In this document: positions 4,951 through 61,804 of the stretch, piece after piece
Numbering within the stretch: the first letter of the stretch is position 1
How the letters are laid out: each line of letters starts with the position of its first letter
IMG/VR virus record: IMGVR_UViG_3300045988_167643
Source of the DNA: a virus
Length of the DNA stretch: 64,000 nucleotides
Strand: one strand, 5' to 3'
Made by a program: the position numbers and the translations under genes
Notes under the pieces: generated by a model
Seen by the model: only the letters and a program-made list of their open reading frames with translations
Database searches by the model: none
What the model was told of the DNA's origin: nothing

Positions 4951-4957
4951 GTAATGA

Positions 4958-5447: not shown

Positions 5448-5492
5448 AGGTTTGGTTTTATGAGCAAGCACCATTTGCTATTAAAAATAAAA

Positions 5493-5518
5493 GAGGACTG
5501 TCGTGATGACCAGCCCTC
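5493..5518 (-). terminator. intrinsic terminator for the minus-strand gene 5554..5763
   Basis: Hairpin GAGGACTG/CAGCCCTC pairs 7 of 8. On the minus strand it is followed by TTTTATTTTTAAT. Confidence 0.5.
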
Positions 5519-5553
5519 ATAAAAGGAGAAACATATGTTCAATCAAGACAGCG

Positions 5554-5763
5554 TTATTTTGGGATATTAATATTTATATCTTTGGACATCATTTTGGCTA
5601 TTGACTTCACTTGTTCATCAGACAAGTTGGATTCAGTGACTTTGTGCACCAAATAGCACTTTCCGACTACAGAAGTAATATGACAAATAGCATAAATGAT
5701 AGCAATTCCAAAACTACCATATAATAATATCGTCATTATAACGTTCTGTCCTTTCTTATTCAT
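5554..5763 (-). CDS. small membrane protein (69 aa), lone minus-strand gene
   Basis: ORF track. Has a TM helix (IMTILLYGSFGIAIIYAICHI) and its own downstream terminator. Confidence 0.5.
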   Translation of the reverse strand: MNKKGQNVIMTILLYGSFGIAIIYAICHITSVVGKCYLVHKVTESNLSDEQVKSIAKMMSKDININIPK

Positions 5764-5913
5764 ATGTTAAAACGTGCTTTTAGCACTCCCACAGGTTCCT
5801 CACCAGGATACAGTAGCGTGCAACGTTCCTGGTGTGGTATCCATGGAACTACTAATATCTTAATTGATAACTGTAATACAATTCTCTTGAAAAATCAATA
5901 AAGGAGTATACAA

Positions 5914-6081
5914 ATGACGGTAAAAACTGTAAAAGAATTAATTGATGTTCTGAAAGATTATCCTCAGAACATGCGTGTTGCATCTGCGTGTCTTCCATTT
6001 GATGATTTAGAAGTTAATTTGCGTCATTATGAGAGCGATAATTATAAAGTAGAAGAATTTGATTTTATAGCAATTGATTAG
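5914..6081 (+). CDS. hypothetical protein (55 aa)
   Basis: Read by hand. AAGGAG RBS lies 7 nt upstream of ATG 5914, and the stop is TAG 6079-6081. Confidence 0.45.
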   Translation: MTVKTVKELIDVLKDYPQNMRVASACLPFDDLEVNLRHYESDNYKVEEFDFIAID

Positions 6082-6101
6082 TTTTAAAAAGGAGAATATA
6101 T

Positions 6102-6536
6102 ATGACAAAAGCAGAATTAATTTTCTATGAAATGACAGATAGAGAAATTTTCAGTAGAGCTAAAACAGTTTATGAGAAGTTAGGAATGAGTGAAAAAGGA
6201 CTTCTCTCAGTTATGCGTCCAACGATGGGTGCTGTAACAATTCTTTCAGTGGATCTCACAAATAAGATCAGAGATGCTGTAAGTATGCAGTATGACGATT
6301 TTCTTGCAGATGACTATATTGAAAGAGCAAAGAAAATTCAGAATGAAATGAAAGAAAAGAGAGAAGAAAGTATTAAGGGGCAGAAAGTAAGTAATTCATA
6401 TATTGATAAATTCAATAAAGAGGTACAGGACTCAGACAATGATTTTGAGAGAGAATGTACTAAAGAAATTATCAGACTTATAAAATTACTTCCTGATAAA
6501 TCTGCCAAGAAACTCATTAAAAAATATTTTGAATAA
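6102..6536 (+). CDS. hypothetical protein (144 aa)
   Basis: ORF track, with AAGGAG RBS. Confidence 0.65.
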   Translation: MTKAELIFYEMTDREIFSRAKTVYEKLGMSEKGLLSVMRPTMGAVTILSVDLTNKIRDAVSMQYDDFLADDYIERAKKIQNEMKEKREESIKGQKVSNSYIDKFNKEVQDSDNDFERECTKEIIRLIKLLPDKSAKKLIKKYFE

Positions 6537-8605: not shown

Positions 8606-9640
8606 ATGAACATTGAAGAGATTAAGAAAAAAGTAGCTGGTCCGGACTATGATTTTCTGAGAAACAATGAACACCTTGGCTCCAACATTATTTTGTTGGG
8701 GTTAGGTGGAAGCTATAGCTATGGTACTCAAAAATCTGACGGAACGAGCGATTTGGATTTGAGGGGAATTTGCTTAAATAAAAAGCATGAAATTCTTACT
8801 AACCAGAATTTTGAACAATTTATCAACGAAGATACAGATACAACTATTTATGCGTTTAATAAGATTATTTATCTTATGGCAGCTTGCAACCCTAATGTTA
8901 TTGAGCTAGGAGGGCTTAAACCAGAACATTATTTATATATTCATCCAATTGGACAAGAAATATTAGATAATGCACATATGTTTTTATCTAAAAGGGCAAT
9001 TCATTCATTTGGTGGTTATGCCTCGCAACAATTAAGAAGAACAAATAACAAGGCAGCTCGTTTAGTAGGACAAACAGAGCGTGAACAACATATTTTAAAT
9101 TCGATAAACAATGCATTTTATACTTTTCCTACAAAATATTTTACATTTCCGGATGATTCTATAAAACTATATGTAGATAAGGCGGTTCAAGAAGACTATG
9201 ATACCGAAGTATTTATGGATATTAATCTAAAGCATTATCCGTTACGTGACTATAAATCTATGTGGTCCGAAATGAATAATATTGTTAAAGATTACTCGAA
9301 AATTGGTAAGCGTAATAAACATGCGGTAGAGCATGGAAAATTAGGTAAGCACATGATGCATTTGGTTCGCCTGTACTATATGTGTTTTGATATTTTGGAA
9401 AATGAGAAGATTATTACATACAGAGAAAAAGAACATTATTTGTTGATGGACATTAGAAATGGTAAATATTTAGATGAAAACAAACAGCCAATTCCAGAAT
9501 TCTTTGAGATGGTAAATGAGTTGGAAAAGAGACTGGAATATGATGCAGAAAACACATCACTTCCAGACAGTCCGGATTATAAAAGAATCAATGAGTTTGT
9601 TATGTCTGTAAACGAAAGAATTGTGAAAGGAGAAATTTAA
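8606..9640 (+). CDS. pol-beta superfamily nucleotidyltransferase (YcgL/RlaP-like by recollection)
   Basis: GLGGSYSYGTQKSDGTSDLDLRGI matches the G[SG]x9-13 D.D NTase signature. ATG 8606 lies 1 nt after the upstream stop (the track start 8588 is TTG). Confidence 0.7.
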   Translation: MNIEEIKKKVAGPDYDFLRNNEHLGSNIILLGLGGSYSYGTQKSDGTSDLDLRGICLNKKHEILTNQNFEQFINEDTDTTIYAFNKIIYLMAACNPNVIELGGLKPEHYLYIHPIGQEILDNAHMFLSKRAIHSFGGYASQQLRRTNNKAARLVGQTEREQHILNSINNAFYTFPTKYFTFPDDSIKLYVDKAVQEDYDTEVFMDINLKHYPLRDYKSMWSEMNNIVKDYSKIGKRNKHAVEHGKLGKHMMHLVRLYYMCFDILENEKIITYREKEHYLLMDIRNGKYLDENKQPIPEFFEMVNELEKRLEYDAENTSLPDSPDYKRINEFVMSVNERIVKGEI

Positions 9641-25363: not shown

Positions 25364-25435
25364 AGCATCTTAGTGTAATGGTTATCACGGATGACCTTGG
25401 ATCATCAGATGTTGGTTCGATTCCAACAGGTGCCG
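25364..25435 (+). tRNA. near-canonical tRNA, anticodon UUG (Gln) if read conventionally, but with C33 and an A1.C72 mismatch
   Basis: Hand fold: AGCATCT-TA-GTGTAATGGTTATCAC-G-GATGA-CCTTGGA-TCATC-AGAT-GTTGG-TTCGATT-CCAAC-AGGTGCC-G. Confidence 0.5.
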
Positions 25436-25506
25436 TTAACTCAGAAATGAGTATTTCAAAGTTAAAAATTTAAAGAATAAAATTCAATTTAAAGGAGAAG
25501 AAAATT

Positions 25507-26157
25507 ATGACAAAAGAAACTATGACAGTACATAAAGCGTTAGCAGAAATTAAAATCCTTAAAGACAGAATCCAGAGTGAGATTTACAATTCAATTTTTG
25601 TATCTTGCAAAAAAAATTCTCAGTCAAAAATTTCTGGAATGGATGTTGATGAATATGAGAAGATTATTACAGGATGTTACGACAAAGATGTAGATCTTAT
25701 GAGTAGACTTGAAGCTCTGCAGAGAGCAGTAATGCTTTCAAATGCAGTAACAAAAGTTAAGATTAAAATTGGAGAAAATGAAGAAGAACGTACTGTAGCA
25801 GAAGCAATCAACATGAAAAATAACAGTATGATGTTCAAGAGACAGATGCTTGACAGAATGCAGCAACAGCTTTCTCAGGCACAGGCAAAAACAAACAAAG
25901 AGAATGAGATTCTTGAAAGTAAGTCAGAAAATTATGTAACTGGTCTTTTTGGACAGAAAGAGGGTAAAACTTCTACCGATGAAGTTACAAAAGCCAAACA
26001 GCAGTACATTGATCTTAACACATGGGAGTTGATTGATCCGATAAATGTGCAAAATAAAATCCGTGTTTTATCTGACGAAATTTCATCATTTGAAGCAGAA
26101 GTAGACTCTGTTTTAAGCACAAGTAACGCATTAACAACAGTTACAATTGAGTATTAA
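25507..26157 (+). CDS. coiled-coil hypothetical protein, the only clear CDS inside the RNA island
   Basis: ORF track, with AAAGGAG RBS. Confidence 0.7.
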   Translation: MTKETMTVHKALAEIKILKDRIQSEIYNSIFVSCKKNSQSKISGMDVDEYEKIITGCYDKDVDLMSRLEALQRAVMLSNAVTKVKIKIGENEEERTVAEAINMKNNSMMFKRQMLDRMQQQLSQAQAKTNKENEILESKSENYVTGLFGQKEGKTSTDEVTKAKQQYIDLNTWELIDPINVQNKIRVLSDEISSFEAEVDSVLSTSNALTTVTIEY

Positions 26158-26435
26158 AGAATGGTTAGTGAATTATTTGCTGAAAATTGTATAAACGATT
26201 TTTGACCAATATGATAGCTAAATAGCCATTGCTATACGAACAGTTGTATAAAAGATTTCCTTCATTGCTTATCGAAAATCACTGAACTATAATCCTTTAG
26301 TCTTTCAGTCAGCATAGAGTAAAGTAAAAAATTAAACAAGCTGGCCTTAAAAATTAAATGGTTTAGACTCATACTCTAAATAATTTTACTAAGTTAGATA
26401 AAATTGTGCAGAAGTGCATTATTACTAATGCATGT

Positions 26436-26554
26436 AAAGTTTAAAGATAGAAAGTTCAAACCTTAAAGTTCAAAATTCAAAGCTTATTTTTGATATAAAG
26501 TTCACGTAGTAAAGTTGATAAGTTCCAAAGTTTGATAAAAACCTTGAGAAAGTT
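26436..26554. repeat. iteron-like array, 7 direct copies of AAAGTT(C/T/G)
   Basis: AAAGTT occurs at 26436, 26451, 26465, 26497, 26511, 26527 and 26549. A TGCATTA/TAATGCA palindrome lies just upstream. Confidence 0.7.
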
Positions 26555-26683
26555 TTGGTAGCATGATTATATCGGCTCTGTGGTTTGTACAAGGCTGATA
26601 AGTGGTGAAGTTCATCTTATAAATAAATCAATGCGGTTATTAAAACCTTGTTTCTTAGTTCTAACAAAGCCGCAGTTGGAACG

Positions 26684-26752
26684 TCCTGGATAGTTAAATG
26701 GTTATAACACATGAAACCCATGTATTTGCCGGTTCGAATCCGCATTCAGGAT
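26684..26752 (+). ncRNA. aberrant tRNA-like element (5-nt anticodon-like loop, weak T stem)
   Basis: Acceptor TCCTGGA/TTCAGGA, D arm GTTA-AATGGTTA-TAAC, ACATG-AAACC-CATGT, and T loop TTCGAAT with only 3 clean stem pairs. Confidence 0.4.
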
Positions 26753-26813
26753 TTGGGTTAGTTACCCAAAAAAGATTTCTTATTTCTTATACCTCCTAAA
26801 GTGTTGATGAGGT

Positions 26814-26880
26814 GGGGCATGACTTCGATGGCGAAGAGACTTTAAATAGTCTGTACTGGGTTCGACTCCCAGATGTCCTA
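26814..26880 (+). ncRNA. aberrant tRNA-like element (67 nt, 6-nt loop TTAAAT)
   Basis: Acceptor GGGGCAT/ATGTCCT with G.U pairs, D arm CTTC-GATGGC-GAAG, AGACT-TTAAAT-AGTCT, and a perfect T arm CTGGG-TTCGACT-CCCAG. Confidence 0.4.
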
Positions 26881-27227
26881 TTAGAGATTTCAGATATGTG
26901 GTGCCACAAAAACGCTTCTCAATATCCGAGTTGCCGTACCGTTTGACTACACAATATCGTGTATGATCCACCTACAGAGCGCAGTAGTTCTGGAATCTCG
27001 AAGCTATACGAAAGATTTGTTTACTGCTAGAGCAATCGAATAGTACGGTTAAACTTTTACATATTTAGTAACAGCAGAGTAGCAGCTGTGCGTGAAAAAG
27101 TGTATATATCTTCGGAAGTTCAATCAAACTTACAGTATGTGGTTATGGTTCTTGTGGCGATGAGCCTTATAAGAAGATCAGAGTACTCTAAAAAGGTTTG
27201 GTTTACAAAGTTGTTTCAATTTTAGCA

Positions 27228-27284
27228 GACACATTCCAGATGGGGAGCCTTAATTGGTTCTGAGTTCAACCCTCAGATGTGTCT
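27228..27284 (+). ncRNA. truncated tRNA-like element (57 nt: acceptor + T arm + one short region)
   Basis: Perfect 7-bp acceptor GACACAT/ATGTGTC and T arm CTGAG-TTCAACC-CTCAG. Only 25 nt sit where the D and anticodon arms should be. Confidence 0.4.
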
Positions 27285-27815
27285 CTTAGGAAGAGTTTCT
27301 TCCTATTATAAATTGAATAGCATAGTTGCGAATATAGGCGGTGCAAAACAATCATCGACATAATAAATCCCAAAGTCATCGTTAGGGAACTCCGTGGAGT
27401 CTGCTCCTATGGCTGATGGACTCTTATGCTATCCATTTTGAATAAGGCGTAGTTAACCTGTGGATGTGGTGAAACGATATATCCCTCCAAAGTTCTGACA
27501 CTTATCAGATATTCAAATGGCGTTATAGCTCTACACATACGTTAAATGTGGGAATTGTAATTAAGGAGCATTATATATTTTATGTATATGGATATAATAA
27601 AATTCTTTTGATGAACTTCTAATGTAGATTACACTATGTTGTTACCATATAGACTTAATAGAAGGAATTTGAAAGAGAAATAATTTCATATTGGAAGTAG
27701 CTATTGTAGATACATATCATCTGAGGTGTGGATGTGAAGATGGCTACGCAGATCTCTCGAAGAAAGTCTAGGCGTAAAGTAAGATGAGTAGATACTGAAG
27801 ATATGAAATTGTTTT

Positions 27816-27888
27816 TGGGTTGTGATGAAGCGGTCAACATCCGGAGCTTTGACCTCCGTATTCGTAGGTTCAAATCCTACCAGCCCAG
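27816..27888 (+). tRNA. tRNA-Gln (anticodon UUG)
   Basis: 73-nt cloverleaf: TGGGTTG-TG-ATGAAGCGGTCAACAT-C-CGGAG-CTTTGAC-CTCCG-TATTC-GTAGG-TTCAAAT-CCTAC-CAGCCCA-G. The U1-A72 pair and D loop resemble bacterial tRNA-Gln. Confidence 0.85.
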
Positions 27889-28055
27889 CTAGTGTTATAA
27901 GTATGCAACGGTAATTGAATATAAATAATAGTAATATGTCACCTTCAAGATAATCCTAGGACTTGAAGTAAAATAAATTACACCTGTGATTAAAGTATTA
28001 TAAAATATATTTATTTATTGGAGGTCGTGCATGGCTTCGCTTATAACACAACCAA

Positions 28056-28129
28056 GGACCATTAGCCAAACGGTTAAGGCAGTCGCCTCATAAGCGAAAG
28101 ATTTCTGTGTTCGAATCACAGATGGTCCA
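28056..28129 (+). tRNA. tRNA with CAU anticodon (Met, or Ile2 if lysidine-modified)
   Basis: GGACCAT-TA-GCCAAACGGTTAAGGC-A-GTCGC-CTCATAA-GCGAA-AGATTT-CTGTG-TTCGAAT-CACAG-ATGGTCC-A. Confidence 0.8.
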
Positions 28130-28488
28130 TATCCACTACGTAACGTATTCCTCATAAATACGTTAGCGATAAAAACTTGACTACTTGATATGAGCAAGCA
28201 GAAGAGATATGCTAAGTTCTTGGTTATAGGCATATCAAAAACGCACAAAAATACAAAATACAATTTAATAACATGCAAAAACCGTTGTCAAAAATATCTC
28301 ATATAAATCCTGTGTGGATTTTACGATAGTCCGAAACTGAGAGGGATTGGTTCAGCGTAAGAGATATACGAGACCTTTAAGTATCAGAAAGTAGGCGGTA
28401 GGTTTTCACAATGGTCACCTACAAAATAGTATGTAAGCCTATACTGATGATGTGCGCAGTTGTCAGTATAGCAGTACTTAAAAAATAA

Positions 28489-28572
28489 ACGGATGTGGCG
28501 AAATCAGGAAAACGCACCAGACTTAGGAACTGGTGGCTAACAGCCTTGTGGGTTCGAGTCCCATCATCCGTA
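28489..28572 (+). tRNA. tRNA-Leu (anticodon UAG), type II with long variable arm
   Basis: ACGGATG-TG-GCG-AAATCAGGAAAA-CGC-A-CCAGA-CTTAGGA-ACTGG-TGGCTAACAGCCTT-GTGGG-TTCGAGT-CCCAT-CATCCGT-A. Confidence 0.85.
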
Positions 28573-51410: not shown

Positions 51411-52046
51411 ATGAGAGAAGTTAAAACAGATACTGTAAATTTTAGTCTTAATCTTGCTGATTGCAGTCCAGCAGTGACAAATGTTGTTATGCAAACACTT
51501 CAGAATACATTCGATAGTCTGCGGAAAGTAATTGAAACAGATAAAGAAGAACAAAAGAAGAAAGAGACTAAGAATCACTGGAAACCGATTACTAGTGAAA
51601 AATATTTTTTTACTTATAGTAATGGAGATGTCGATTCTGTTATTTGGACTGAAAATAAAGCAGATAAAGGACGCTATGGTCTTCGAAATGTTTTTAGAAC
51701 CAAAGAAGACGCAGAATTTGAGGTAGAGCGTAGAAAAATCATGGCAGAACTTCAGAACTATGCAGATAAACACAATGGAGAAATCGCCCATCCATCGTAC
51801 GCATTCTGGCTTGCACTTGATGAAGACGACATGTCAATTACTGTTGAGAACGATTCATTTCTTCCACCGGTAGGTACTGTACTGTTCTCTAATGGAGATA
51901 TAGCTTACGATGCGATTGAAACTATTGGTGAAGACAGAATTCTTAAATATATGTTTAGAGTTAATCCAAATAAAGAATTGCATTGCAACGGTGATTGTGA
52001 ATGTTGCGATGAATATGATCCATGGGACGAGGAGGATGAAGATTAA
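51411..52046 (+). CDS. hypothetical protein with acidic C-terminus
   Basis: ORF track. Confidence 0.65.
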   Translation: MREVKTDTVNFSLNLADCSPAVTNVVMQTLQNTFDSLRKVIETDKEEQKKKETKNHWKPITSEKYFFTYSNGDVDSVIWTENKADKGRYGLRNVFRTKEDAEFEVERRKIMAELQNYADKHNGEIAHPSYAFWLALDEDDMSITVENDSFLPPVGTVLFSNGDIAYDAIETIGEDRILKYMFRVNPNKELHCNGDCECCDEYDPWDEEDED

Positions 52047-52576
52047 TGAAGAGGGTAGCAAAATTTGAGAAAGTAAGCTATAAGCAGTTTGAAAAAGATT
52101 ATTTAGATACATTTGGACTTGCAGGTGATGATACATCTAAGAGACTCAGACAAGAAATTGAAAGTATGTATTATGGATTAGAGTTACCTACAAGAGCTAC
52201 AAAGTTTAGCGCAGGATTTGATATTAGAACTCCATTTTCATTTACACTAAAGCCAGGAGAAGTAATTAAAATTCCAACAGGTATTAAATGTCGTATGAAT
52301 ACAGATTATGTTCTTATGATTTACCCAAGAAGTGGACTTGGATTTAAATATCAGTGCAATCTAGTAAATGGAACAGGAATTATAGACTGCGATTTTATTA
52401 ACTCTGACAACGAAGGTCACATTTTTATTAAACTTGTAAATCGTGGAGATAAAGAGTTTTCAGTAACAAGTAATGCAGCTATCGCCCAGGGAATTTTCTT
52501 AGAATATGGAATTACAGAAGACGATCATGTAGAAGCAACTCGTAACGGTGGGTTTGGATCAACTGATAGGAAATAA
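52046..52576 (+). CDS. dut: trimeric dUTPase
   Basis: Carries SAGFDIRT, PRSGLG, GIIDCDF and RNGGFGSTD. Confidence 0.85.
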   Translation: MKRVAKFEKVSYKQFEKDYLDTFGLAGDDTSKRLRQEIESMYYGLELPTRATKFSAGFDIRTPFSFTLKPGEVIKIPTGIKCRMNTDYVLMIYPRSGLGFKYQCNLVNGTGIIDCDFINSDNEGHIFIKLVNRGDKEFSVTSNAAIAQGIFLEYGITEDDHVEATRNGGFGSTDRK

Positions 52577-52585
52577 GAGGTAAAT

Positions 52586-52804
52586 ATGGATACATTTTAT
52601 TATTGCGCATTAGATGAAAATTCTAAAACATGTCCAAAACAGAACATTTGCAAAAGGTACACTCATAAAAAGGGTGTACCTGCTTCAGAAGATGCAAGTG
52701 CAAAATTGTATAATATCTGCAATGATAAATATGGATATAAATTGTTTTTAGAAGATGAAGATATAAAGGAAGATGAGAAAAATGACAATAACAAAGAAAT
52801 TTAG
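52586..52804 (+). CDS. small Cys-containing hypothetical protein
   Basis: ORF track. Confidence 0.5.
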   Translation: MDTFYYCALDENSKTCPKQNICKRYTHKKGVPASEDASAKLYNICNDKYGYKLFLEDEDIKEDEKNDNNKEI

Positions 52805-53027
52805 AATGAATACGCCAAGTGATGCAGAATTTATTGCGAAAAAATTATGTAAATATGATTATGATATTGATGCGGTCATTGGAAGATACGTAATTGATGC
52901 TAAATCACTTTTAGGGTTGCTTTCTTTAACACCTCCTAAAATTATTGATATCAGCATTCATACAGACAATGTAAAAATTGCAGAGGAAATTTTTAATAAT
53001 ATTTCAGAATTAAAGGAGACCGAATAA
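52782..53027 (+). CDS. HPr-like domain protein
   Basis: VIDAKSLLGLLSL...IDISIHTDNVKIAEEIFNNI parallels the HPr core (..NAKSIMGVMSLG...I.A.G.DE..A...I). The N-terminal active-site His region is not obvious. Confidence 0.45.
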   Translation: MTITKKFRMNTPSDAEFIAKKLCKYDYDIDAVIGRYVIDAKSLLGLLSLTPPKIIDISIHTDNVKIAEEIFNNISELKETE

Positions 53028-53929
53028 TGGAATATGAATATGGACTGATGACAAAAGCCGATAAATATCTCGTAGAATCTATCTATAATATCCTTCAAAA
53101 TGGTATTAAAGATGAAAATCCTAGACCAAAATATGAGGATGGAACACCTGCACATACCTATTTTGTGACACATCAAATGCGTCAATATGACCTCTCAAAA
53201 GGTGAATTTCCAATCTGTACTTTACGTCCAATTGCATGGAAAAGTGCAATCAAAGAGATGTTTTGGATCTTCCAAAAAGAGTCAAATAACCTCAAGCTTT
53301 TGAATGAAATGGGCGTGTCGTATTGGAATTTATGGGATATTGGAGACGGTACAAATGGATATAGATATGGTCATACAGTACACCGTTATGACCTGTTTAA
53401 AAAGCGTGTTTTAGATGATATCAAGAACAATCCATATGGACGTTATCATATTTGTAATCTCTGGCAAGAAGAGGAATTTAAAGATGAACCAAACGGATTA
53501 AAACCATGTGCTTATGAGACCATCTGGACAGTACGTGGAGAGTATTTAGACCTATTTTTGAATCAGAGATCAGGTGACTTATTAGCTGCAAGCGGTGGAG
53601 GTGGAATTAATGAAGTACAGTACGCTGCACTGCTCATGATGGTAGCTAGACACGCTGGATATAAACCTGGAAAATTTACTCATTTCGTGGCAAACGAACA
53701 GGTATACGACCTCCATATTGACCAGGCAAAAGAGTTAATTCATCGTGCAAATGAGAGACATTTAGTCACTTTTGAAGCGTTAAAAAATGGCGAAATTGAT
53801 AAAAATTTGATGCCAAAATTGGTATTAAATCCAGAAAAAAATAACTTTTACGACATGACAATTGACGACTTTTCTATGGGAAATTACAAGCCAATGAAGC
53901 CACAATTGACACTACCGTTGGGTATTTAA
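53027..53929 (+). CDS. thyA: thymidylate synthase family protein (divergent ThyA)
   Basis: Catalytic Cys context LKPCAYE, NQRSGDL, and INEVQYAALLMMVA in place of PFNIASYALL. The C-terminal ...LPLGI resembles the ThyA terminus. Confidence 0.7.
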   Translation: MEYEYGLMTKADKYLVESIYNILQNGIKDENPRPKYEDGTPAHTYFVTHQMRQYDLSKGEFPICTLRPIAWKSAIKEMFWIFQKESNNLKLLNEMGVSYWNLWDIGDGTNGYRYGHTVHRYDLFKKRVLDDIKNNPYGRYHICNLWQEEEFKDEPNGLKPCAYETIWTVRGEYLDLFLNQRSGDLLAASGGGGINEVQYAALLMMVARHAGYKPGKFTHFVANEQVYDLHIDQAKELIHRANERHLVTFEALKNGEIDKNLMPKLVLNPEKNNFYDMTIDDFSMGNYKPMKPQLTLPLGI

Positions 53930-53942
53930 GGAGAGAAAATTT

Positions 53943-54935
53943 ATGTTATCAGCAATCGTTTGTATGGATAATTTTGGTGGAATCGGCAAAGATGGTGACT
54001 TACTTTATAAGATTCCAGAAGATATGAAAAGATTTAAAGAATTAACAATGGGACATTCTGTTATCATGGGAAGAAAGACATGGAACAGTATTGGTAACAA
54101 GCCACTTAAAAGTAGGAACAATATTATCCTTTCTACGACACTTAATTATGCAGTAGAGCCAATCAATATCAATGAAAATAATGGATATGTTACAGATGTT
54201 AATGTGCTAAAAAAAATGACAAAAGAAGAAATAAAATTTATAGCCGAAATTCCGCTTAAATATTTTGCAATCGGTGGAGAAAGTATCTATAAAATGTTCT
54301 TACCTTATTGCGAAAAAGTTTATGCAACAATCGTTAATTTAGGCGATAGATGTATCTCTACAGCAGATGTATTTTTTCCAATTGAGTACCTTCTAAACAA
54401 TTTTGATGAAATTGAATCTATAGATAATACATACGGTAATTTATCATATAGTTTCAAAACATTTGTTAGAAAAGACAATTGCAAAACTGTATCCCACGCT
54501 TATTCTGATCCAGTTTCTGGACATAATGCAGTAGATAATCCGTCTCATTATTGCGGAACAAAATACCAGGTAATTAATTTTATAGAAGACTGGGGACTTG
54601 GTTATTGCCTTGGTAATGTAGTTAAATATATCTGCAGAGCCGGTAAGAAATATGTTGGTGACAAGCAAAAAGAACTTCAGGATTTAAAAAAAGCTAAATG
54701 GTATCTTGAAAGAAGATTAGAAGAGCATAAAAATGGTGTTGAGCTTGATTCTGATGATCTGAAAATGAATATATCTATAGACGATTTTGTAGAAGATCAA
54801 AAGCTCAATTATATTCGTAAAAAAATTATAAAAAATGTTACTGATTGCGTTTATGAAGAAATTGACACTAAGTTTTATGCCGCCTTAGAGTTGCTTGATA
54901 CAGAAATTAACAGGATGGAGGATGAGACTGCATGA
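53943..54935 (+). CDS. folA: dihydrofolate reductase fused to a DUF3310-like C-terminal domain
   Basis: The N-terminal IVCMDNFGGIGKDGDLLYKIPEDMKRFKELTMGHSVIMGRKTWNSI is DHFR. The C-terminal NPSHYCG...IEDWGLGYCLGNVVKYICRAGKK...DLKKAKWYLERRL matches the DUF3310 signature I recall. Confidence 0.8.
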   Translation: MLSAIVCMDNFGGIGKDGDLLYKIPEDMKRFKELTMGHSVIMGRKTWNSIGNKPLKSRNNIILSTTLNYAVEPININENNGYVTDVNVLKKMTKEEIKFIAEIPLKYFAIGGESIYKMFLPYCEKVYATIVNLGDRCISTADVFFPIEYLLNNFDEIESIDNTYGNLSYSFKTFVRKDNCKTVSHAYSDPVSGHNAVDNPSHYCGTKYQVINFIEDWGLGYCLGNVVKYICRAGKKYVGDKQKELQDLKKAKWYLERRLEEHKNGVELDSDDLKMNISIDDFVEDQKLNYIRKKIIKNVTDCVYEEIDTKFYAALELLDTEINRMEDETA

Positions 54936-55072
54936 TTACACTTAGTATTGGTACATTTATTTGTATTGTAGGCTGCACATTTGTGGTTGGTGGAGTAGTT
55001 GGACTTATTCTTACAGCTTGTCTTACTGCCGGAAGAAATAAAGATGATGATGATATTGATCAATATCCGTAA
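54932..55072 (+). CDS. small membrane protein (46 aa)
   Basis: Read by hand. ATG overlaps the folA stop (ATGA). A hydrophobic core is followed by an acidic tail. Confidence 0.4.
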   Translation: MITLSIGTFICIVGCTFVVGGVVGLILTACLTAGRNKDDDDIDQYP

Positions 55073-55120
55073 TATATTAAGCAAAATAAGTAAAATATTG
55101 CGAAATTGGGACTCGAACTA

Positions 55121-55149
55121 TTGCAAGAAATATATAAATTTCGTATAAT
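55121..55149 (+). promoter_or_regulatory. near-consensus sigma-70/SigA promoter
   Basis: TTGCAA (55121-26), an exact 17-nt spacer, then TATAAT (55144-49). Confidence 0.65.
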
Positions 55150-55155
55150 GACTTC

Positions 55156-55316
55156 AAGGTCAGAAGTACTATGTTCGAGGGCAATAAACTTTAGCGTAAA
55201 ATGGGGCAAATTTTTTAGCCTGAAACATCAAACAAAATAGTTTACTTACAAGGAACTTATAAGAACAAGAACATAGAAAATGACCTTTGATATTTTTATC
55301 CGAGGTCATTTTTTTG
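55156..55316 (+). ncRNA. candidate ~160-nt sRNA or terminated leader upstream of the Tn7-like genes
   Basis: Runs from the predicted TSS about 7 nt after the -10 box to an intrinsic terminator. It contains no ORF. The 5' AAGGTCA can pair with the terminator 5' arm. Confidence 0.5.
55277..55316 (+). terminator. intrinsic terminator
   Basis: ATGACCT(55280-86)/AGGTCAT(55303-09) plus an inner GATA/TATC stem, followed by T6-7. Confidence 0.7.
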
Positions 55317-55582
55317 TGCAATTTGACGAAAAGTTCAAAAAACAGCCAAAAATAGCTCAAAATCGCGATTTTTCCAAAAATCGACTTTCTAGAAGTCAAT
55401 AAAAATAAGGGATTTAAGTGGGTCATTTTCCCGATAAAATTGTGATTTTATTGTAGTCAAGTTAACATGCACAAAAGAGGAAAATCTTGCGTCAGAGCAA
55501 ATTTTGACCGGAATAAAAGAATAAAATTTTTGCCTCAAAAAAGGCTAAAAGCAATTGCCCTTCGACATAGTATTTTTAACCT

Positions 55583-55751
55583 CGTTTTTAGGAAACGTTT
55601 TTAGGAAAATCCGCAAACCATTGATTTTACTGGGTTTGCGAGTACTTTATTTTTCCTAAAAACGAAATGCTAAAAATGAAAATAACCCTAAAAATGCGTT
55701 TTTAGGAAAAAATCATTCGTTTTTAGCAAAAAAATAGCCGTTTTTATGAAA
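55583..55751. repeat. array of 13-bp CGTTTTTAGGAAA motifs (putative transposase-binding sites)
   Basis: Forward copies lie at 55583, 55596, 55697, 55718 and 55739, the last three phased at exactly 21 bp. Reverse copies lie at 55652-64, 55668-77 and 55686-96. An 8-bp-stem hairpin lies at 55612-55640. Confidence 0.75.
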
Positions 55752-55779
55752 AACCATTTCAAAAATAGGGGGTAAAATA

Positions 55780-56139
55780 ATGCGGAATAAAAATTCAAAA
55801 GTAGCTGCAACAAAATTATATTTATGCAAATGTGATGGCGTATGCATAACCTACAGCAAGATTCAATATGCCTATGCAATGAAACTAGAAAAAGATCAAA
55901 GCATAATCAGTATACGAGTAAATGTAGATCTTGATGGATATAAGGATAGTAAGTATCCAGAAAGAACTTACACATCAGACTTTGTATGCGTAAAAGATAC
56001 AGGTGACCTAATGGTCCGAGAATGTATAGAAAGAAAATTATTGCAAAAACCAATGACAATTAGATTACTAGACGGTTCCAGAGATTACTGGAAGACGCAT
56101 GGTGTGTCAGATTGGGGGATTGTTATTGATGAAGAATAA
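55780..56139 (+). CDS. tnsA: short TnsA-like endonuclease-fold protein (N-terminal catalytic domain only)
   Basis: YSKIQYAYAMKLEKD..., TYTSDFVCV, MVRECIERK and RDYWKTHGVSDWGIVIDEE align by eye to the TnsA_N pattern (S.lE..., YTPDF, vEVK, YW..G..w.ivtE). Confidence 0.55.
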   Translation: MRNKNSKVAATKLYLCKCDGVCITYSKIQYAYAMKLEKDQSIISIRVNVDLDGYKDSKYPERTYTSDFVCVKDTGDLMVRECIERKLLQKPMTIRLLDGSRDYWKTHGVSDWGIVIDEE

Positions 56140-57952
56140 ATTGTATAAATACAAAGATACAATAGTAAGAGTCTTAAACGAATCTGGTCAATCAGTTTTT
56201 ATTATTGATTGTTTAAAACCAAAAATGCCATATACAGTGCATAAAATGGATTTTAAGGACGCTATTTTGTGTGATGAGGATTTACTCATGCAAGAGACAA
56301 ATGAGCCTGTATTCGACATATTAGAAGCTTCGGAGCATAATAAAAAGATAGCATACGATCGGTACAACATGATTGCTCCATTACTTTCCTTTATGGACGA
56401 TAAATATAAACGAACATTATTGTTTAATCAAGTATGTCAGGAAAGAAATATAAGCAAACAGTCTCTTAGAAATTACTTTTACAAGTATCTTATTTACCAA
56501 AATATTTGTGTACTTGCACCTAAGAGTAACATTACAGAAAAATCACTTACACAAGATGAAAAAAATATGAGATGGGCTTTAAATAAATATTTTTATAGTA
56601 CAAACAGATATAGTTTAAAGTCTTCTTACTTATTTATGCTGAAAGAAAAATATTGCGATATAAATGGCAAGCTACAATCAAATATTCCATCTTTTTATCA
56701 GTTCCGCTATTTCTATAGGAAAACAAAAAATATGCAAACTTTTTACATCACAAGGGATGGTTTGAGTAATTATCAAAGAAATAAAAGACCATTATTGGGG
56801 GATGGAATACAAGAATTTGCACCTGCAGTTGGAACAGGATTACTTGATGCAACGGTATGTGATATATACCTTATAGATGAAACAAACAGCTTAGTTGGAA
56901 GACCTATATTAACAGTTTGTATAGACGCATATAGCAGTTTTTGTTATGGCTATGCATTAACTTGGGAAGGTGGTATTTATAGTTTAAAAGTACTTATGCA
57001 AAATATGGTATCTAATAAAAAGAAACATTGTGAAGAACTTGGTATATTCATAAATGAGAATCAGTGGAGCATATCTGAAATTCCTGGAACGTTTGTAACT
57101 GATATGGGAAAAGAATATGTATCTGAGAATTTTGAACAAATAACTGAGCTTGGAGTTACACTAAAAAACTTGCCACCATACCGTCCTGAGTTAAAAGGTG
57201 TTGTAGAAAAATTTTTTAATATAATTCAAGAAACATACAAACCTTATTTAAAAAATAAAGGTATAGTGGAACCTGATTTTCTTGAAAGAGGCGTACATGA
57301 TTATAGAAAAGATGCATGTTTGACAATAGAAGACTTTGAAAAAATCATAGTGCGATGTATTGTGTATTATAACTCGCAACGTATTTTAAAGAACTTCCCT
57401 TATACAGAAGACATGATAGAAAACGATATTAAGCCATATGCAAATAATATTTTTGAGTACAGCAAATTATCTCCAGGAGCTAACTTAATACCGGTAACAT
57501 TGAAACAAATTATGCTTACATTACTTCCAAGGACCACTGGCGTATTTAGCAGATTTGGACTTAAAGTGAATAAAATGAGGTACAAAAATGAGAATTATGT
57601 TGAAAAATATTTGGTTGGTGGGGAAGTAACGGTTGCTTATAATCCAGATAATGTAAGTTATGTATGGCTTATAGAAAATGGATGTTATATACAGTTTAAA
57701 TTGATTGAAAGTAGGTATAATGGAAAAGAGTTAACTGATGTAGAATTGATCGAAAAAGAACATCGAAAACTCGTAAATAATCATTGTAATAGTAACACTC
57801 AGGCACAAATTGATTTGGCAAATTCTTTAGAAGAGATAGTGGCTAATGTACAGAAACCTCAAAAATTAAATATGAAATGTGTTACATCTGTTAAAAATAG
57901 AGCTAAAAGAAAATGTCATATTGATTTCATGGAGGATATCTTAAATGGATGA
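56129..57952 (+). CDS. tnsB: TnsB/TniA-type DDE transposase (rve/Mu-like)
   Basis: DDE triad contexts LLDATVCDIYLID, FVTDMGKEY and PELKGVVEKFF. An HTH-like N-terminal region is present. ATG 56129 or 56099 could be the start. Confidence 0.85.
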   Translation: MKNKLYKYKDTIVRVLNESGQSVFIIDCLKPKMPYTVHKMDFKDAILCDEDLLMQETNEPVFDILEASEHNKKIAYDRYNMIAPLLSFMDDKYKRTLLFNQVCQERNISKQSLRNYFYKYLIYQNICVLAPKSNITEKSLTQDEKNMRWALNKYFYSTNRYSLKSSYLFMLKEKYCDINGKLQSNIPSFYQFRYFYRKTKNMQTFYITRDGLSNYQRNKRPLLGDGIQEFAPAVGTGLLDATVCDIYLIDETNSLVGRPILTVCIDAYSSFCYGYALTWEGGIYSLKVLMQNMVSNKKKHCEELGIFINENQWSISEIPGTFVTDMGKEYVSENFEQITELGVTLKNLPPYRPELKGVVEKFFNIIQETYKPYLKNKGIVEPDFLERGVHDYRKDACLTIEDFEKIIVRCIVYYNSQRILKNFPYTEDMIENDIKPYANNIFEYSKLSPGANLIPVTLKQIMLTLLPRTTGVFSRFGLKVNKMRYKNENYVEKYLVGGEVTVAYNPDNVSYVWLIENGCYIQFKLIESRYNGKELTDVELIEKEHRKLVNNHCNSNTQAQIDLANSLEEIVANVQKPQKLNMKCVTSVKNRAKRKCHIDFMEDILNG

Positions 57953-59180
57953 TTATACAAAAATATTACCTAAAATGTTATCAGGAGATGGACTTGTAAA
58001 AGCATTGTCTGTTGTTCCAAAATATGATGAAAATAGTAAAAATATGGATATTGGAGAAAGGCTGATTGCCCTATCAAATCTATATGATATTTATATTCCA
58101 TCTAAAATGTCCATAGAGATTTATAACAAATTATATTTGTCTTTATATCACTCACTAAAAAAGAAGAGTTCAAAATTGGCATCACAGCAAAGATACGAAA
58201 ATTACAAAAGATTTTTAACAGGAAACTCTAATAGTATAATTGGCGGATCTGATTCATTTACAATAATAGGGAGTTCAGGTATTGGTAAAAGTACAGCCGT
58301 TAACAGGGCAGTAGATGTTATTGTTGAAAATTGTAAATTTGATTGCAATTTATTCTCAGATATAATTCCATTTGTAACTGTACAATGCCCATTTGATTCA
58401 TCTGTAAAAGGTCTTGCGATCGAAATTTTGATGAAGATAAACAGTATGCTTAAAACACAATATTTAAATGGGAAAATTATTGATAAATGTACCACAGATG
58501 CCCTCATAAGCCAAATAAGTACAATAGCAATGAATAATATAGGTGTTCTTATCATTGATGAGATACAAAATGTTGCAAACTCAAAAAACGGTAAAAATAT
58601 AATAGGATTTCTTACACAGCTTATCAACAATAGTGGAATAAGTATTTGCATGGTTGGGACTCCGGAAAGCGTGTTATTTTTTGAAGGCGCAGAGCATCTT
58701 GCCAGAAGAACTATGGGGCTTAAATATACAACACTTTCTTATGATGAGTACTTTAAAAACATATGTAATATATTATTTAGATATCAATATACTATAAAAA
58801 ATGCAACAATAAATGAAGAGTTTTATAAATGGATATATGACCATTCCTGCGGTAACATTTCAATTGTAATATCATTATTACACGATGCTCAGGAAATTGC
58901 TATAATGTCAGGAGTTAGTAAGATTAATATTAATATATTGAATGAAGCATACCAAAATAGGATTGAAATGTATCACAAATTTATACAACCAAGCATTAAC
59001 AAAGTCGATAAAAAGAAAAATAAACACATAGTATCTGATAGAACAAATAATATCACACAAGATTGCGTAATAAAAGAGTTTAATAACATTGAAACGATAT
59101 TGAAAATATCTAAGGAAAAAAATATTGATTTTATAAAACTGCTCAAACAATCAATTATAGTGGAGGAAATAAAAATATGA
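57945..59180 (+). CDS. tnsC: TnsC/TniB-type AAA+ transposition regulator
   Basis: Walker A GSSGIGKST and Walker B VLIIDEIQN. Coupled to tnsB and tniQ. Confidence 0.8.
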   Translation: MDDYTKILPKMLSGDGLVKALSVVPKYDENSKNMDIGERLIALSNLYDIYIPSKMSIEIYNKLYLSLYHSLKKKSSKLASQQRYENYKRFLTGNSNSIIGGSDSFTIIGSSGIGKSTAVNRAVDVIVENCKFDCNLFSDIIPFVTVQCPFDSSVKGLAIEILMKINSMLKTQYLNGKIIDKCTTDALISQISTIAMNNIGVLIIDEIQNVANSKNGKNIIGFLTQLINNSGISICMVGTPESVLFFEGAEHLARRTMGLKYTTLSYDEYFKNICNILFRYQYTIKNATINEEFYKWIYDHSCGNISIVISLLHDAQEIAIMSGVSKININILNEAYQNRIEMYHKFIQPSINKVDKKKNKHIVSDRTNNITQDCVIKEFNNIETILKISKEKNIDFIKLLKQSIIVEEIKI

Positions 59181-59989
59181 CAAACAGACTTCCTAGCATC
59201 TATGATGACGAAACAGTTTACAGCTGGTTCTGTAGATATCTTATAAGTAGCGGTATATGGAGAGAGCATGAGATTGCAAAAGAACTATTTGTAAACAGTA
59301 CAAATGTTATTAGTAAATTATTTATTGGAAATATTAATAAAGATACCGAAAATAATATTGAGAAAGTTATATCAATAGAAAATCTGTTAAAACATCATAC
59401 AATGTTTTATGTTTATACAGGGTATTGTTCAAATGACTATGCTAATGAATTCCTTTATAATTTAAAAACGGACTGCTATAAAACAGAGCTTAATATAAGA
59501 AGACCACGTAGCGAAAATAGACAATTGAAATATTGTCCAATGTGTATTATTGAGGATCGTAAAAAATATGGAGAAGCATATTGGCATAATATACATCAAA
59601 TACGAATGTTACCGATATGTCCTATACACAAGTGCAAATTGCATAATAGTGAAATACGTTATATTGGTTATGGAAGAGTAAGAGAAAAATTATCTCCACT
59701 AGAAATGATGAATCTTAACTCTGATGTAGAATATAACACAAATGAAATGCTTGATAAAATAGTTGAATACGCAATTGACAGGTATTATAAACAAGACATA
59801 AAAGATATTGGTATTGATTATTTGTCGATTAGAAAAGAAAATTGGGGATTAAGAAGTAACATAATTAGTTTTTATAAAAAACATGGAATAAATTTTTGCG
59901 GTAAAGAAATAGACTCAATGGTATATGACAATAGAAAAAATTTTTATACAATGAGTGCCATATATTATTATTTAAAAATATGCCATTAA
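59177..59989 (+). CDS. tniQ: TniQ-family target-selection protein (short, 270 aa)
   Basis: N-terminal LPSIYDDETVYSWFCRY, and the zinc finger YCPMCIIED...HNIHQIRMLPICPIHKC is typical of TniQ/TnsD N-domains. Confidence 0.8.
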   Translation: MTNRLPSIYDDETVYSWFCRYLISSGIWREHEIAKELFVNSTNVISKLFIGNINKDTENNIEKVISIENLLKHHTMFYVYTGYCSNDYANEFLYNLKTDCYKTELNIRRPRSENRQLKYCPMCIIEDRKKYGEAYWHNIHQIRMLPICPIHKCKLHNSEIRYIGYGRVREKLSPLEMMNLNSDVEYNTNEMLDKIVEYAIDRYYKQDIKDIGIDYLSIRKENWGLRSNIISFYKKHGINFCGKEIDSMVYDNRKNFYTMSAIYYYLKICH

Positions 59990-60065: not shown

Positions 60066-60353
60066 ATGGCAGCAAGAACAAGACGAACAAAAGAAGAAGT
60101 GCTTAATTCAAAACTTACAAAAATTGATGAAGAAATTAAAAAATTAACTGAGAAGATTAATGTATTATCAGAACAGAAGAAAAATATTGATAAAGAACTT
60201 GCTATTTTAAAAGACCAGAAATCTAAAGCCGAACGTGCAGCCCAGCTTACAGCTCTTGCAGATCTTATGGATTCCAACGGTTACACGATTGATGAACTGA
60301 AGGAGCTTATGTCCATGCCGAAACCAACGGTAGAAGTAGCTGATGAGGAATAG
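60066..60353 (+). CDS. small coiled-coil protein (DUF4315-like by recollection)
   Basis: AGGAGG RBS precedes ATG 60066. A heptad-rich helix is followed by the C-terminal GYTIDELKELM. Confidence 0.55.
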   Translation: MAARTRRTKEEVLNSKLTKIDEEIKKLTEKINVLSEQKKNIDKELAILKDQKSKAERAAQLTALADLMDSNGYTIDELKELMSMPKPTVEVADEE

Positions 60354-60432
60354 TAAACGAGGGATAATATAAACGTAGCGTTAGAAAAGTAGTAGAGTAG
60401 GGTAGTGGAATGATAGAATTGTAATACACTAT

Positions 60433-60487
60433 AAAAGCCTGGGCGAGTGCATGTATTGATTTGCATTGTTGCCTGGGCTTTTATTAT
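60433..60487 (+). terminator. intrinsic terminator
   Basis: AAAAGCCTGGGC (60433-44) pairs with GCCTGGGCTTTT (60471-82) using two G.U pairs, followed by TTTTATTAT. Confidence 0.55.
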
Positions 60488-60573
60488 GGTCATTAGACCA
60501 CATTGTACATGGAAATATACAGTAAAATATAGTAATATATTAGTAGAAAAGAACAGATTGGAGGGTTGACAAT

Positions 60574-60825
60574 ATGGACACATATACAGAACAAGACAGA
60601 TTAAATGATTTCAAATATTTTGTAAGTATATACCAAGATTTATATAATAAATATGGAGAATCCTTTATAGCGCTGAAAAATAAGAAAATTCTTGGAGCAT
60701 TTAAAACAGTAAATGAAGCAATACAAGCGCTCTCAGACAAATATAAGCTCGGAACATACATTATTCAAGAATGTAATGGTGATGAATCTGGATATACTGC
60801 ATCTATTATGACAATAAGGATATAA
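60574..60825 (+). CDS. small protein (DUF5678-like by recollection), upstream partner of the protease
   Basis: ORF track, with GGAGGG RBS. A 4-nt gap separates it from the next gene. Confidence 0.6.
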   Translation: MDTYTEQDRLNDFKYFVSIYQDLYNKYGESFIALKNKKILGAFKTVNEAIQALSDKYKLGTYIIQECNGDESGYTASIMTIRI

Positions 60826-60829
60826 TATT

Positions 60830-61315
60830 ATGGACTTATACTTGGCATTTACTTTAAAATCAAAAGATATATCAAAACGTTTAATTACAGATATATTTAT
60901 TAATTTGGATAAGGAAGATATTTACAAGAATAGAGCATGGCGAGGAGTATGGGATACTGGTGCTACAAGATCGGCAATAGATAAAAGAATAGTTGATGAA
61001 TTAAATTTGACATCAGTAGGTAAGGCTAGACTTAGTACAGCAAATGGTGAAAAAATCGTAAACACTTATCGCATATCTATGATATTGCCAAATGAAGTTA
61101 CAATCAGTAATGTACTTGTATCAGAAGTCGAGTTAGGTGAAGATTGTGATTTGTTGGTTGGAATGGATATTATATCAAAGGGGGATTTTTCAATAACAAA
61201 TAAATATGGTGAAACTGTATTTAGTTTTAGAACTCCCTCAATAAAAGAAATTGATTATGTTAAAGAATCAAAGAAAGAAATAGAACAATTTATAGCGCTG
61301 AATTACAATAAATAA
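60830..61315 (+). CDS. retropepsin-like (clan AA) aspartic protease
   Basis: The active-site motif VWDTGATRSAID (D-T-G-A) and later LLVGMDII (flap/dimer-type hydrophobic-G-x-D) are present. Confidence 0.7.
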   Translation: MDLYLAFTLKSKDISKRLITDIFINLDKEDIYKNRAWRGVWDTGATRSAIDKRIVDELNLTSVGKARLSTANGEKIVNTYRISMILPNEVTISNVLVSEVELGEDCDLLVGMDIISKGDFSITNKYGETVFSFRTPSIKEIDYVKESKKEIEQFIALNYNK

Positions 61316-61384
61316 TGCTAACTCTATGCTATAATATCCCTAAAGAGATCCACCACTAATTCACCACGCAAGGAGGTAACCATA

Positions 61385-61477
61385 ATGCCAACACAGATTG
61401 CTGCAACACCACAACAAGAGGTCGCAGCAACCACAGACTATCCAGTCACAGACCAGTCATCATCCGATCAGGATTAA
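61385..61477 (+). CDS. 30-aa peptide ORF
   Basis: AAGGAGG lies 8 nt upstream of ATG. Sequence is MPTQIAATPQQEVAATTDYPVTDQSSSDQD. Read by hand. Confidence 0.35.
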   Translation: MPTQIAATPQQEVAATTDYPVTDQSSSDQD

Positions 61478-61804
61478 CATACTTAATACATAACCACACA
61501 AAAGACAGTCAGGCTCACGCAGTTTGGCTTTTAACATTTCAATCTCACACAAAATCCACAAAATAGAGTTTACATATGCTTGAATTGGAAGCTTTTGGAT
61601 TAGAAGCTTTAAAGGTTATCAAAGGTTACATTGTATCATGCTAGGCTTAAGGATATATGGGGTCATATAAATGATCCAAGACTATATGTGCACTCTCTTT
61701 TATGGATTTTTTGAAATGTGTTTTAGACAAGAATTATAATACTATAAAGTCACACATATGTCTATTAGAATCGTTCGACATAAATCTACATACAGTTAGT
61801 AAAA

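Follow-up and report, generated by a model that had tools for sequence, protein, structure and literature searches.

The 64,000-nucleotide stretch of viral DNA filed in IMG/VR as IMGVR_UViG_3300045988_167643 (called the window below, always at its full length) carries at positions 55780-59989 four co-directional, overlapping open reading frames (ORFs), which encode a TnsA-like protein, the DDE transposase TnsB, the AAA+ ATPase TnsC and a short TniQ. The original prediction, made from the letters alone, had seen there a Tn7-family set inside a phage genome, and the Pfam, fold and solved-structure matches described below established that the set is genuine. Its placement was found as described, with an array of repeated 13-mers ahead of it, between nucleotide-metabolism genes (dUTPase, thymidylate synthase thyA and a DHFR-DUF3310 fusion, upstream) and lysis genes (a holin-like gene and an endolysin, downstream and on the minus strand). 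The start of the unit had been put at 55583; the first 13-mer does stand there, but the functional unit begins at 55172, at the edge of a cassette devoid of genes. The features on which the argument depends are the following, in positions of the window:

55172 to 55567, plus strand: gene-less cassette of 396 bp with the termini 5'-TGTTCGAGGGCAAT...ATTGCCCTTCGACA-3', its boundaries taken from the host junctions of the loci L172, L168, L174, L025 and L165
55172 to 55228, plus strand: arm 1 of the cassette (terminus TGT), with two direct units of about 24 nt, GGGCAAT-N4-TTTAGC and GGGGCAAA-T6-AGCC
55511 to 55567, minus strand: arm 2 (terminus ...ACA), an imperfect inverted copy of arm 1, at whose outer edge phage and host DNA meet in L025 and L172
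55583 to 55751, plus strand: array of six 13-mers (one inverted, the others direct), with a spacing of 21 bp between the last three
55780 to 56139, plus strand: TnsA-like protein of 119 aa, matching the fold of Tn7 TnsA over the catalytic domain only
56129 to 57952, plus strand: TnsB, a DDE transposase of 607 aa from the ATG at 56129, in an ORF which opens at 56099 (617 aa)
57945 to 59180, plus strand: TnsC/TniB, an AAA+ ATPase of 411 aa (Pfam TniB, 5e-13, and AAA_22)
59177 to 59989, plus strand: short TniQ of 270 aa (Pfam TniQ, E 1e-16)

Host junctions of this phage lineage were found by exact-protein look-ups of the TnsA-like protein, except that of L025; pattern scans of viral, genome and metagenome collections returned no host junction besides the latter. 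They showed that prophages of the lineage sit between an araC-like gene and galK, with a full cassette at each end in direct orientation. The insertion point is upstream of both genes, by 125 bp for galK and by about 155 bp for the divergent araC-like gene, and it is the tns-proximal side of the prophage which adjoins the latter. Locus L172 presents both junctions in one contig, in the order host / cassette-array-tnsABC-truncated tniQ // dUTPase-thyA-DHFR-cassette / galK. Its left cassette reads ...GCATGT[AAAAT]/TGTTCG...CGACA/TAGTA-array and its right one TACTA/TGTTCG...CGACA/[AAAAT]GAAATT-galK; the two are identical at 396 of 396 positions and differ from the cassettes of other prophages at 4-7 positions. 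In the empty site, found in L075 (Blautia faecis) as GCATGTAAAATGAAATT, AAAAT is present once, and because of this comparison the insertion in L172 can be described as the duplication of 5 bp of host DNA (a perfect target duplication, AAAAT) together with 396 bp of phage DNA. The phage DNA of L172 corresponds to window positions 55172-59324 joined to 51537-55567, and reads as a prophage of the window's phage, opened at the cassette, from which the middle has been deleted.

Other loci present the same site. L168 and L174 represent a second, different deletion derivative with the same two junctions. In L165, 56 nt of host flank from the araC side lead into cassette-array-tnsA-tnsB-tnsC-TniQ (270 aa) within a 51-kb phage contig, while in L025 79 kb of phage DNA end at the outer edge of arm 2 and are followed by a galK 100% identical to that of Blautia faecis. 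Since the junction of L025 is offset by 1 bp and the A-run of the left junctions differs by one base among loci, these loci correspond to at least three independent insertions at the araC-galK site, within 1 bp of each other and in the same orientation. L174 carries in addition a solo cassette (positions 8994-9389 of that locus) in tandem with the left cassette of the prophage, with AAAT between them and 15-18 differences, which is probably the scar of an earlier cycle of integration and excision. Among the representative genomes of Blautia, neither a prophage nor a solo cassette was found at galK.

In many independent assemblies, contigs break within the cassette, at 55-57 nt (or another k-mer length) from one edge or the other, as is expected if these edges have several flanks, phage and host, in the same sample. 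Two contigs of 122,814 bp and 215,182 bp each start and finish about 57 nt inside the cassette, a pair which implies that a unit genome measures about 123 kb or about 215 kb in members of the group. We also considered that the cassette could be an invertible promoter segment, and dropped this idea: the breaks track the outer and not the inner edges of the arms, and the host junctions explain them.

The cassette appears to be the actual transposable unit, carrying both transposon termini, 5'-TGT...ACA-3', in imperfect inverted arms. A 61-nt imperfect inverted repeat encloses the non-coding stretch directly 5' of the 13-mer array. The core of this repeat, TACTATGTYSRAGGGCAAT, has exactly two copies in the window, inverted to each other. 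In each arm there are two direct units of about 24 nt, of the GGGCAAT-N4-TTTAGC type, which would be candidate TnsB-binding sites. The two ends enclose only 396 bp of non-coding DNA in the window, and the tns genes fall between the outermost termini only in the integrated composite. A downstream transposon end made of inverted 13-mers was looked for and rejected: no second end, of this or any other candidate kind, was found 3' of tniQ, either in the window or in relatives that reach 4 kb further. The same layout (arm, hairpin with U-tract, inverted arm, repeat array, tnsA-like gene) is common to all the divergent relatives examined, L005, L006, L010 and L011-L018. The termini had been read as TAT.../...ATA from L011 and L025; for the phage lineage these were replaced by TGT.../...ACA through the junctions of L172 and the empty site.

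The array of 13-mers is not part of the cassette; it separates arm 2 from the tnsA-like gene. The 13-mer itself, CGTTTTTAGGAAA, starts at 55583, 55596, 55697, 55718 and 55739 on the plus strand and at 55652 on the minus strand; allowing up to 2 mismatches, it has 10 matches in the window against 3.0 expected, a number reached by 0 of 100 shuffles. Analogous repeat arrays occur in L005, L006, L010 and L011. By analogy with Tn7, whose TnsB represses its own promoter from sites near the transposon end, the array probably provides TnsB with operator or accessory sites at the tns promoter.

The TnsA-like protein could be identified by fold comparison only, having no match in Pfam and none in the PDB by sequence or family-profile search. 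Its family comprises 214 detected homologs of about 115-120 aa. The AlphaFold model, with a mean predicted local distance difference test (pLDDT) value of 93, has one significant fold match, which is Tn7 TnsA (1t0f/1f1z; query TM-score 0.81, E 3e-7), of which it lacks the C-terminal domain. In a residue alignment Q29, kept in at least 90% of 25 homologs, is paired with E63 of Tn7 TnsA, and I83, an Ile or Val in every homolog read, with K132; the equivalent of D114 is retained as D67, which is invariant, and a Glu stands at the position of Q130. The full catalytic set E63, D114 and K132, which is the mark of the cut-and-paste subgroup, is thus incomplete in a residue alignment of low support, and the nuclease would be inactive. 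The ratio of non-synonymous to synonymous substitution rates (dN/dS) of the gene is 0.10-0.14.

TnsB shows the Pfam domains rve and Mu-transpos_C, with HTH_TnsB recorded on genes of identical synteny, and its best solved relative is Tn7 TnsB (7pik, E 2e-32), with which the contexts of the three catalytic residues D, D and E are aligned and conserved. The best solved relative of TnsC is Tn7 TnsC (E 1.6e-16), and the DDE transposase and its AAA+ partner are matched by PHROG 310 and 296. The N-terminus of TniQ matches Tn7 TnsD (E 1e-9), and its model (pLDDT 67) was aligned by Foldseek with residues 1-318 of TnsD (E 7e-6 over 304 columns). Against relatives of 445-489 aa, TniQ covers the first 295 or so alignment columns and the C-terminal region of about 155 aa is absent, which bears out the prediction of a short TniQ without a TnsD-like C-terminal region. 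In 8 related contigs all four genes are intact and of the same lengths, TniQ being always of 270 aa. The dN/dS ratio is about 0.10 for tnsB, 0.04-0.22 for tnsC and 0.07-0.43 for tniQ, with one comparison for the latter at 1.30 that comes from only 7 substitutions; values of about 0.1 indicate that the four genes are under purifying selection.

The position of the module in the genome is informative as well. L022/L023 are 89% identical to the window across the DHFR gene and diverge from it at window position 55065; beyond this point, where the window has the cassette and the Tn7-like module, L023 has at 4913-6106 a tyrosine integrase and then host DNA (leuA). There has been a swap of integration modules between close relatives, and because L022/L023 carry a tyrosine integrase in that place, the Tn7-like module occupies the position of an integration module. 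TniQ proteins of 263-274 aa, at 49-51% identity, occur in the same phage setting, with the holin-like gene, the endolysin and tail-fibre genes. Because these divergent homologs share the phage synteny, the association of the module with this phage group is old, and the module is neither a recent insertion nor a remnant.

On these grounds we think it probable, and hold this with good confidence, that the tnsA-like/tnsB/tnsC/tniQ operon is a lysogeny module of the phage, acting on the 396-bp cassette and integrating the phage through a replicative cointegrate. The following scenario can be proposed. The infecting phage genome would be a circle with one cassette, and TniQ and TnsC would mark the chromosomal site, which in Blautia faecis-like hosts is the araC-like/galK intergenic region. 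TnsB would pair the arms of the cassette, nick their 3' ends and join them to the target with a 5-bp stagger. Because the TnsA-like protein lacks two catalytic residues, the 5' strands would remain uncut, and replication through the cassette would then produce the cointegrate host-AAAAT-cassette-array-tnsABCQ...phage...DHFR-cassette-AAAAT-host. Excision would proceed by recombination between the two cassettes, giving back a one-cassette circle and leaving a solo cassette in the host. The cointegrate interpretation is favoured because a transposon copy at each junction together with a 5-bp duplication is the product of replicative transposition. Tn7 with a catalytically dead TnsA is known to give cointegrates, and CRISPR-associated transposons (CASTs) of type V-K, which have no TnsA, mainly give them. 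With somewhat more reserve, we also favour the wider proposal that Tn7-derived TnsB, TnsC and TniQ with a nuclease-dead TnsA replicatively transpose a 396-bp mini-transposon and thereby fuse a circle of 123-215 kb at one chromosomal site, in a widespread family of phages of gut Lachnospiraceae; the flanking repeats would be like long terminal repeats (LTRs), solo repeats would be left after excision, and the route would be new.

Several points weigh against this scheme. There is no single contig with a full-length prophage and both junctions: both are seen only in the two deletion derivatives, the evidence for full-length prophages is split between L165 on the left and L025 on the right, and the window itself shows no integrated copy but the one-cassette form. 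A perfect duplication is seen in L172 only, since the A-run at the left junction is not the same in all loci, by a difference of one base. The fold match of the TnsA-like protein to Tn7 TnsA is strong, but the residue alignment is weak (hhalign probability 1.4%), and an active site of another kind might be made up by the invariant Arg80-Glu81. The scheme explains neither what the 13-mer array does nor by what means a TniQ devoid of the TnsD C-terminal region locates its site. Finally, the integrated structure has a competing explanation, in which the packaged genome is linear with the cassette as a direct terminal repeat, and TnsB, TnsC and TniQ insert it directly and without replication, as in retroviral LTR integration. 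This would predict the same cassette at both ends, the same identity of the copies and the same 5-bp duplication; genomes with terminal repeats also assemble as one-cassette contigs, many contigs do end near the cassette, and the TnsA-like protein could be purely structural. However, contig ends about 57 nt inside the edges are those of a k-mer overlap at a branch point of the assembly graph rather than physical ends, and a TnsA fold maintained under strong selection without the equivalents of E63 and K132 fits the known switch to replicative transposition. We regard direct insertion of a linear genome as unlikely, without being far-fetched.

Two further explanations concern the nature of the module itself. 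All four core genes are present, non-coding repeats lie upstream and the genes 3' of tniQ vary among relatives, as they would for an ordinary Tn7-like transposon travelling in the phage with its own ends and cargo and targeted by an RNA or a cargo protein. This explanation is largely refuted and we give it very little credence: no second end exists anywhere in the window, both termini lie 5' of the genes and face each other across 396 bp, the edges of the cassette coincide exactly with the phage-host junctions, synteny of the module extends to phages of only 51% identity and in a relative its position is that of the integrase, and there is no Rfam match. The cassette could also be the attP of a site-specific recombinase encoded elsewhere, the tns genes being in decay or otherwise employed. 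Excision does require some recombination between cassettes, and our inspection for other integrases covered 64 kb of a genome of at least 123 kb, which counts against replicative integration by the tns operon too; in these 64 kb no homolog of tyrosine or serine recombinases was found. On the other hand, the empty Blautia site shares no sequence with the cassette, a duplication of 396 bp of phage and 5 bp of host DNA with TGT/ACA termini is the signature of DDE transposition and not of attP x attB recombination, and the genes are intact with a dN/dS of about 0.1, so that an attP role is in our opinion highly improbable.

Ownership of the module by the phage corresponds to the second of the two options of the original prediction, co-option by the phage, and this is what the evidence shows. 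The first option, a transposon embedded with its cargo, was not borne out, no ends flanking the tns genes; the RNA-like features that were thought to flank it at 55.1-55.8 kb turned out to be the cassette with both termini, followed by the 13-mer array, and gave no Rfam match. A dead remnant was to be recognised by genes that are fixed, degenerate and without ends: the genes are fixed in the lineage yet intact (dN/dS about 0.1), and the ends exist. Nor is target selection missing, as had been supposed, given the three or more insertions within 1 bp at araC-galK and the long-TniQ relatives that are inserted after guaA or purL.

Targeting by the phage module is site-specific, to one intergenic position with 1-bp precision. 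Either the helical region 190-269 of TniQ would read the DNA or a partner would be needed. A protein that is always beside tniQ in this phage group deserves mention here:

60066 to 60353, plus strand: small basic coiled-coil protein of 95 aa

In close relatives a basic coiled-coil protein of 90-95 aa always follows tniQ, and in L154 and L155 there is a small ORF of 72 or 99 aa; as a speculation, the 95-aa protein may be an accessory factor for targeting or excision. In line with the prediction, neither a CRISPR array, nor CRISPR-DR or any other Rfam family, was found in or adjoining the module. No cas gene was noticed in the window, in which no systematic scan for cas or tnsE was made. A structured or guide RNA at 55.1-55.6 kb was considered and abandoned, since this region has no Rfam match at the gathering threshold or at E up to 1. 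A guide role for the cassette is likewise unsupported, identical cassettes being found at guaA and at purL despite different TniQ proteins.

The relatives at these two genes belong to bacterial chromosomes. A homolog of the TnsA-like protein, P0051, is encoded there in elements whose start is 6-9 bp past a stop codon, either that of guaA (three loci, TniQ of 485 aa) or that of purL (four loci, TniQ of 489 aa). Host and element meet at the outer edge of the first arm, and it is the cassette-like segment which adjoins the host DNA. This is classic TnsD-type attachment-site targeting; the long TniQ of these elements gives a weak TnsD signal (PF15978) in its C-terminal region, which is the region absent from the phage TniQ. 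The cargo near their module consists of a helicase and a primase and is not clearly of phage origin. The guaA-type contigs L011, L014, L017 and L018 all end about 32-34 kb past the host-proximal terminus, which points to an element about 33 kb long, with an assembly-breaking repeat at its far end too. At 1-2700 of L017, an element of the guaA/purL type is found at a third site, with no conserved gene adjoining and with IS3-like remnants beside it; about 90 central nt of its cassette-like segment differ. Such a site could mean that there is a second mode of targeting, or that another mobile element has served as the target.

Compared with known systems, the module is a member of the Tn7 family with two tested departures, an incomplete TnsA and genes that do not lie between the ends. 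The closest solved relatives of all four proteins are Tn7 proteins. The TGT...ACA termini, the repeated subterminal motifs, the 5-bp duplication and the site- and orientation-specific insertion are also those of Tn7, and the relatives, which are inserted a few bp past the stop codon of guaA or purL, both conserved genes, resemble in this respect Tn7 at attTn7 downstream of glmS. In contrast with Tn7, TnsA is cut down to a catalytic-domain fold of 119 aa, without equivalents of E63 and K132 and without the C-terminal domain; the transposition genes are outside the ends, which bound a gene-less unit of 396 bp; the product is the fusion of a whole phage replicon with a copy of the unit on each side; and TniQ has no TnsD C-terminal region, its target being an intergenic promoter region instead of a gene's 3' end.

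Transposition by TnsB, TnsC and TniQ without cleavage of the 5' strands would be shared with type V-K CASTs and with Tn5053/Tn402, TnsA-less elements which give cointegrates carrying two transposon copies. However, neither Cas12k, nor a guide RNA, nor a CRISPR array, the components of a type V-K CAST, was found in the module and its surroundings, and no homolog of the TniR-type resolvase of Tn5053/Tn402 near the module or in the window. Unlike all these elements, the phage module retains the TnsA fold, and the cointegrate appears to be its intended end product, the prophage, rather than a by-product. With phage Mu it shares the formation of a prophage by a DDE transposase of the MuA/TnsB superfamily and an AAA+ partner, with a 5-bp target duplication. 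In Mu the genome ends are the transposon ends, integration is near random and replication proceeds by transposition; neither ends at the genome ends nor near-random integration was found here. The present phage has replication genes of its own, uses one chromosomal site with a TniQ/TnsD-type selector, and has the two ends together on a small cassette inside the genome. By analogy only, the long direct repeats with TG...CA inverted ends, the short duplication and the solo repeats recall retroviral LTRs and the cointegrates of insertion sequences and Tn3, and the one-repeat circular form is comparable to a 1-LTR circle. Reverse transcription is not involved, the DDE fold is all that relates the proteins to retroviral integrase and, unlike an LTR, the cassette repeat would be a product of DNA replication across the cassette.

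Temperate phages are known to integrate through tyrosine or serine recombinases, through Mu-type transposition or by hijacking XerCD, and TniQ-targeted transposition of the Tn7 family would add a route to these. A survey of 6,549 Tn7-like elements found none in viruses (PMC8649781), and a survey of target selectors mentions phage only for Mu (PMC10293859). Our search of full-text literature, with subscription-only papers outside its scope, retrieved no description of a phage-borne Tn7-like integration module, and the deposited phages of the INPHARED set include 0 genomes with this Tn7-type module. If the proposal is true, this would be the first natural virus known to use TniQ-targeted transposition of the Tn7 family, and a natural case of protein-guided, site-specific insertion of circles of more than 100 kb that need only a 396-bp tag. 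The cointegrate, usually the unwanted by-product of TnsA-less systems, would become the purpose of the system. As an idea for a tool, any circle provided with the 396-bp cassette might go into a defined site, the natural substrates being of 123-215 kb. The phages would also allow a natural experiment on the way in which 1-bp precision is attained by a TnsD-type selector lacking its C-terminal region. In practice, these prophages break assemblies at the cassette, and tools based on integrases miss their boundaries.

Two minor features of the non-coding region, inside and upstream of the cassette, are the following:

55275 to 55321, plus strand: hairpin followed by a U7 tract, like an intrinsic terminator, inside the cassette (dG -18.3 kcal/mol, z -6.2)
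55121 to 55149, plus strand: promoter-like site TTGCAA-17-TATAAT, a match to the consensus only (10/12), in a region where such sites are not more numerous than in shuffles

An equivalent hairpin is present in L010, and a simple terminator scan did not pick up that of the window. The hairpin would insulate the tns operon from upstream transcription in the circular and in the integrated state alike. The putative sigma-70-like promoter reads into arm 1, and transcription from it would end at the hairpin, giving an RNA of about 160 nt over arm 1. Just 5' of the promoter-like site, a 21-nt tandem repeat (2.3 copies) occupies 55053-55100, and a membrane peptide of 46 aa (54933-55072) is encoded by the final phage gene ahead of the cassette.

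The phage of the window is a large temperate phage of the gut (Blautia), of 123 to about 215 kb. In a public assembly collection, about 498 indexed blocks contain the exact TnsA-like protein, and for this reason the group can be called common in human gut samples. The rest of the window is devoted to phage replication and nucleotide metabolism, including Pol III alpha and a DnaB-like helicase; by DNA polymerase, the closest cultured relative is Clostridium phage Amboise, at 49% identity. In the neighbourhood of the module, the DHFR and DUF3310 domains are fused in one protein of 330 aa (53943-54935). The region 3' of tniQ (60354-61800) is a variable accessory stretch, which contains in the window an 83-aa protein and a retropepsin-like aspartyl protease (60830-61315), and in the relatives L157, L159-L161 and L165 an Abi_2 abortive-infection gene on the opposite strand, or a 260-aa protein instead. 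Farther away, a tRNA cluster at 25364-28572 comprises Gln (twice), Met, Leu and one detected by Rfam only (26684-26752), and a RAGATH-27 RNA lies at 26261-26346 (85 bits, for a gathering threshold of 76). In L170, L173 and L175, which are relatives of the phage of the window, the ribonucleotide reductase gene is interrupted by a LAGLIDADG homing-endonuclease gene (about 860-2700), and the phage DNA of L168 also has a LAGLIDADG_2 gene. Finally, L005 (5900-12500) and L006 represent a different, smaller phage with the same kind of module and a TniQ of 449 aa, in which the reverse transcriptase of a diversity-generating retroelement is found beside the tail-fibre genes.

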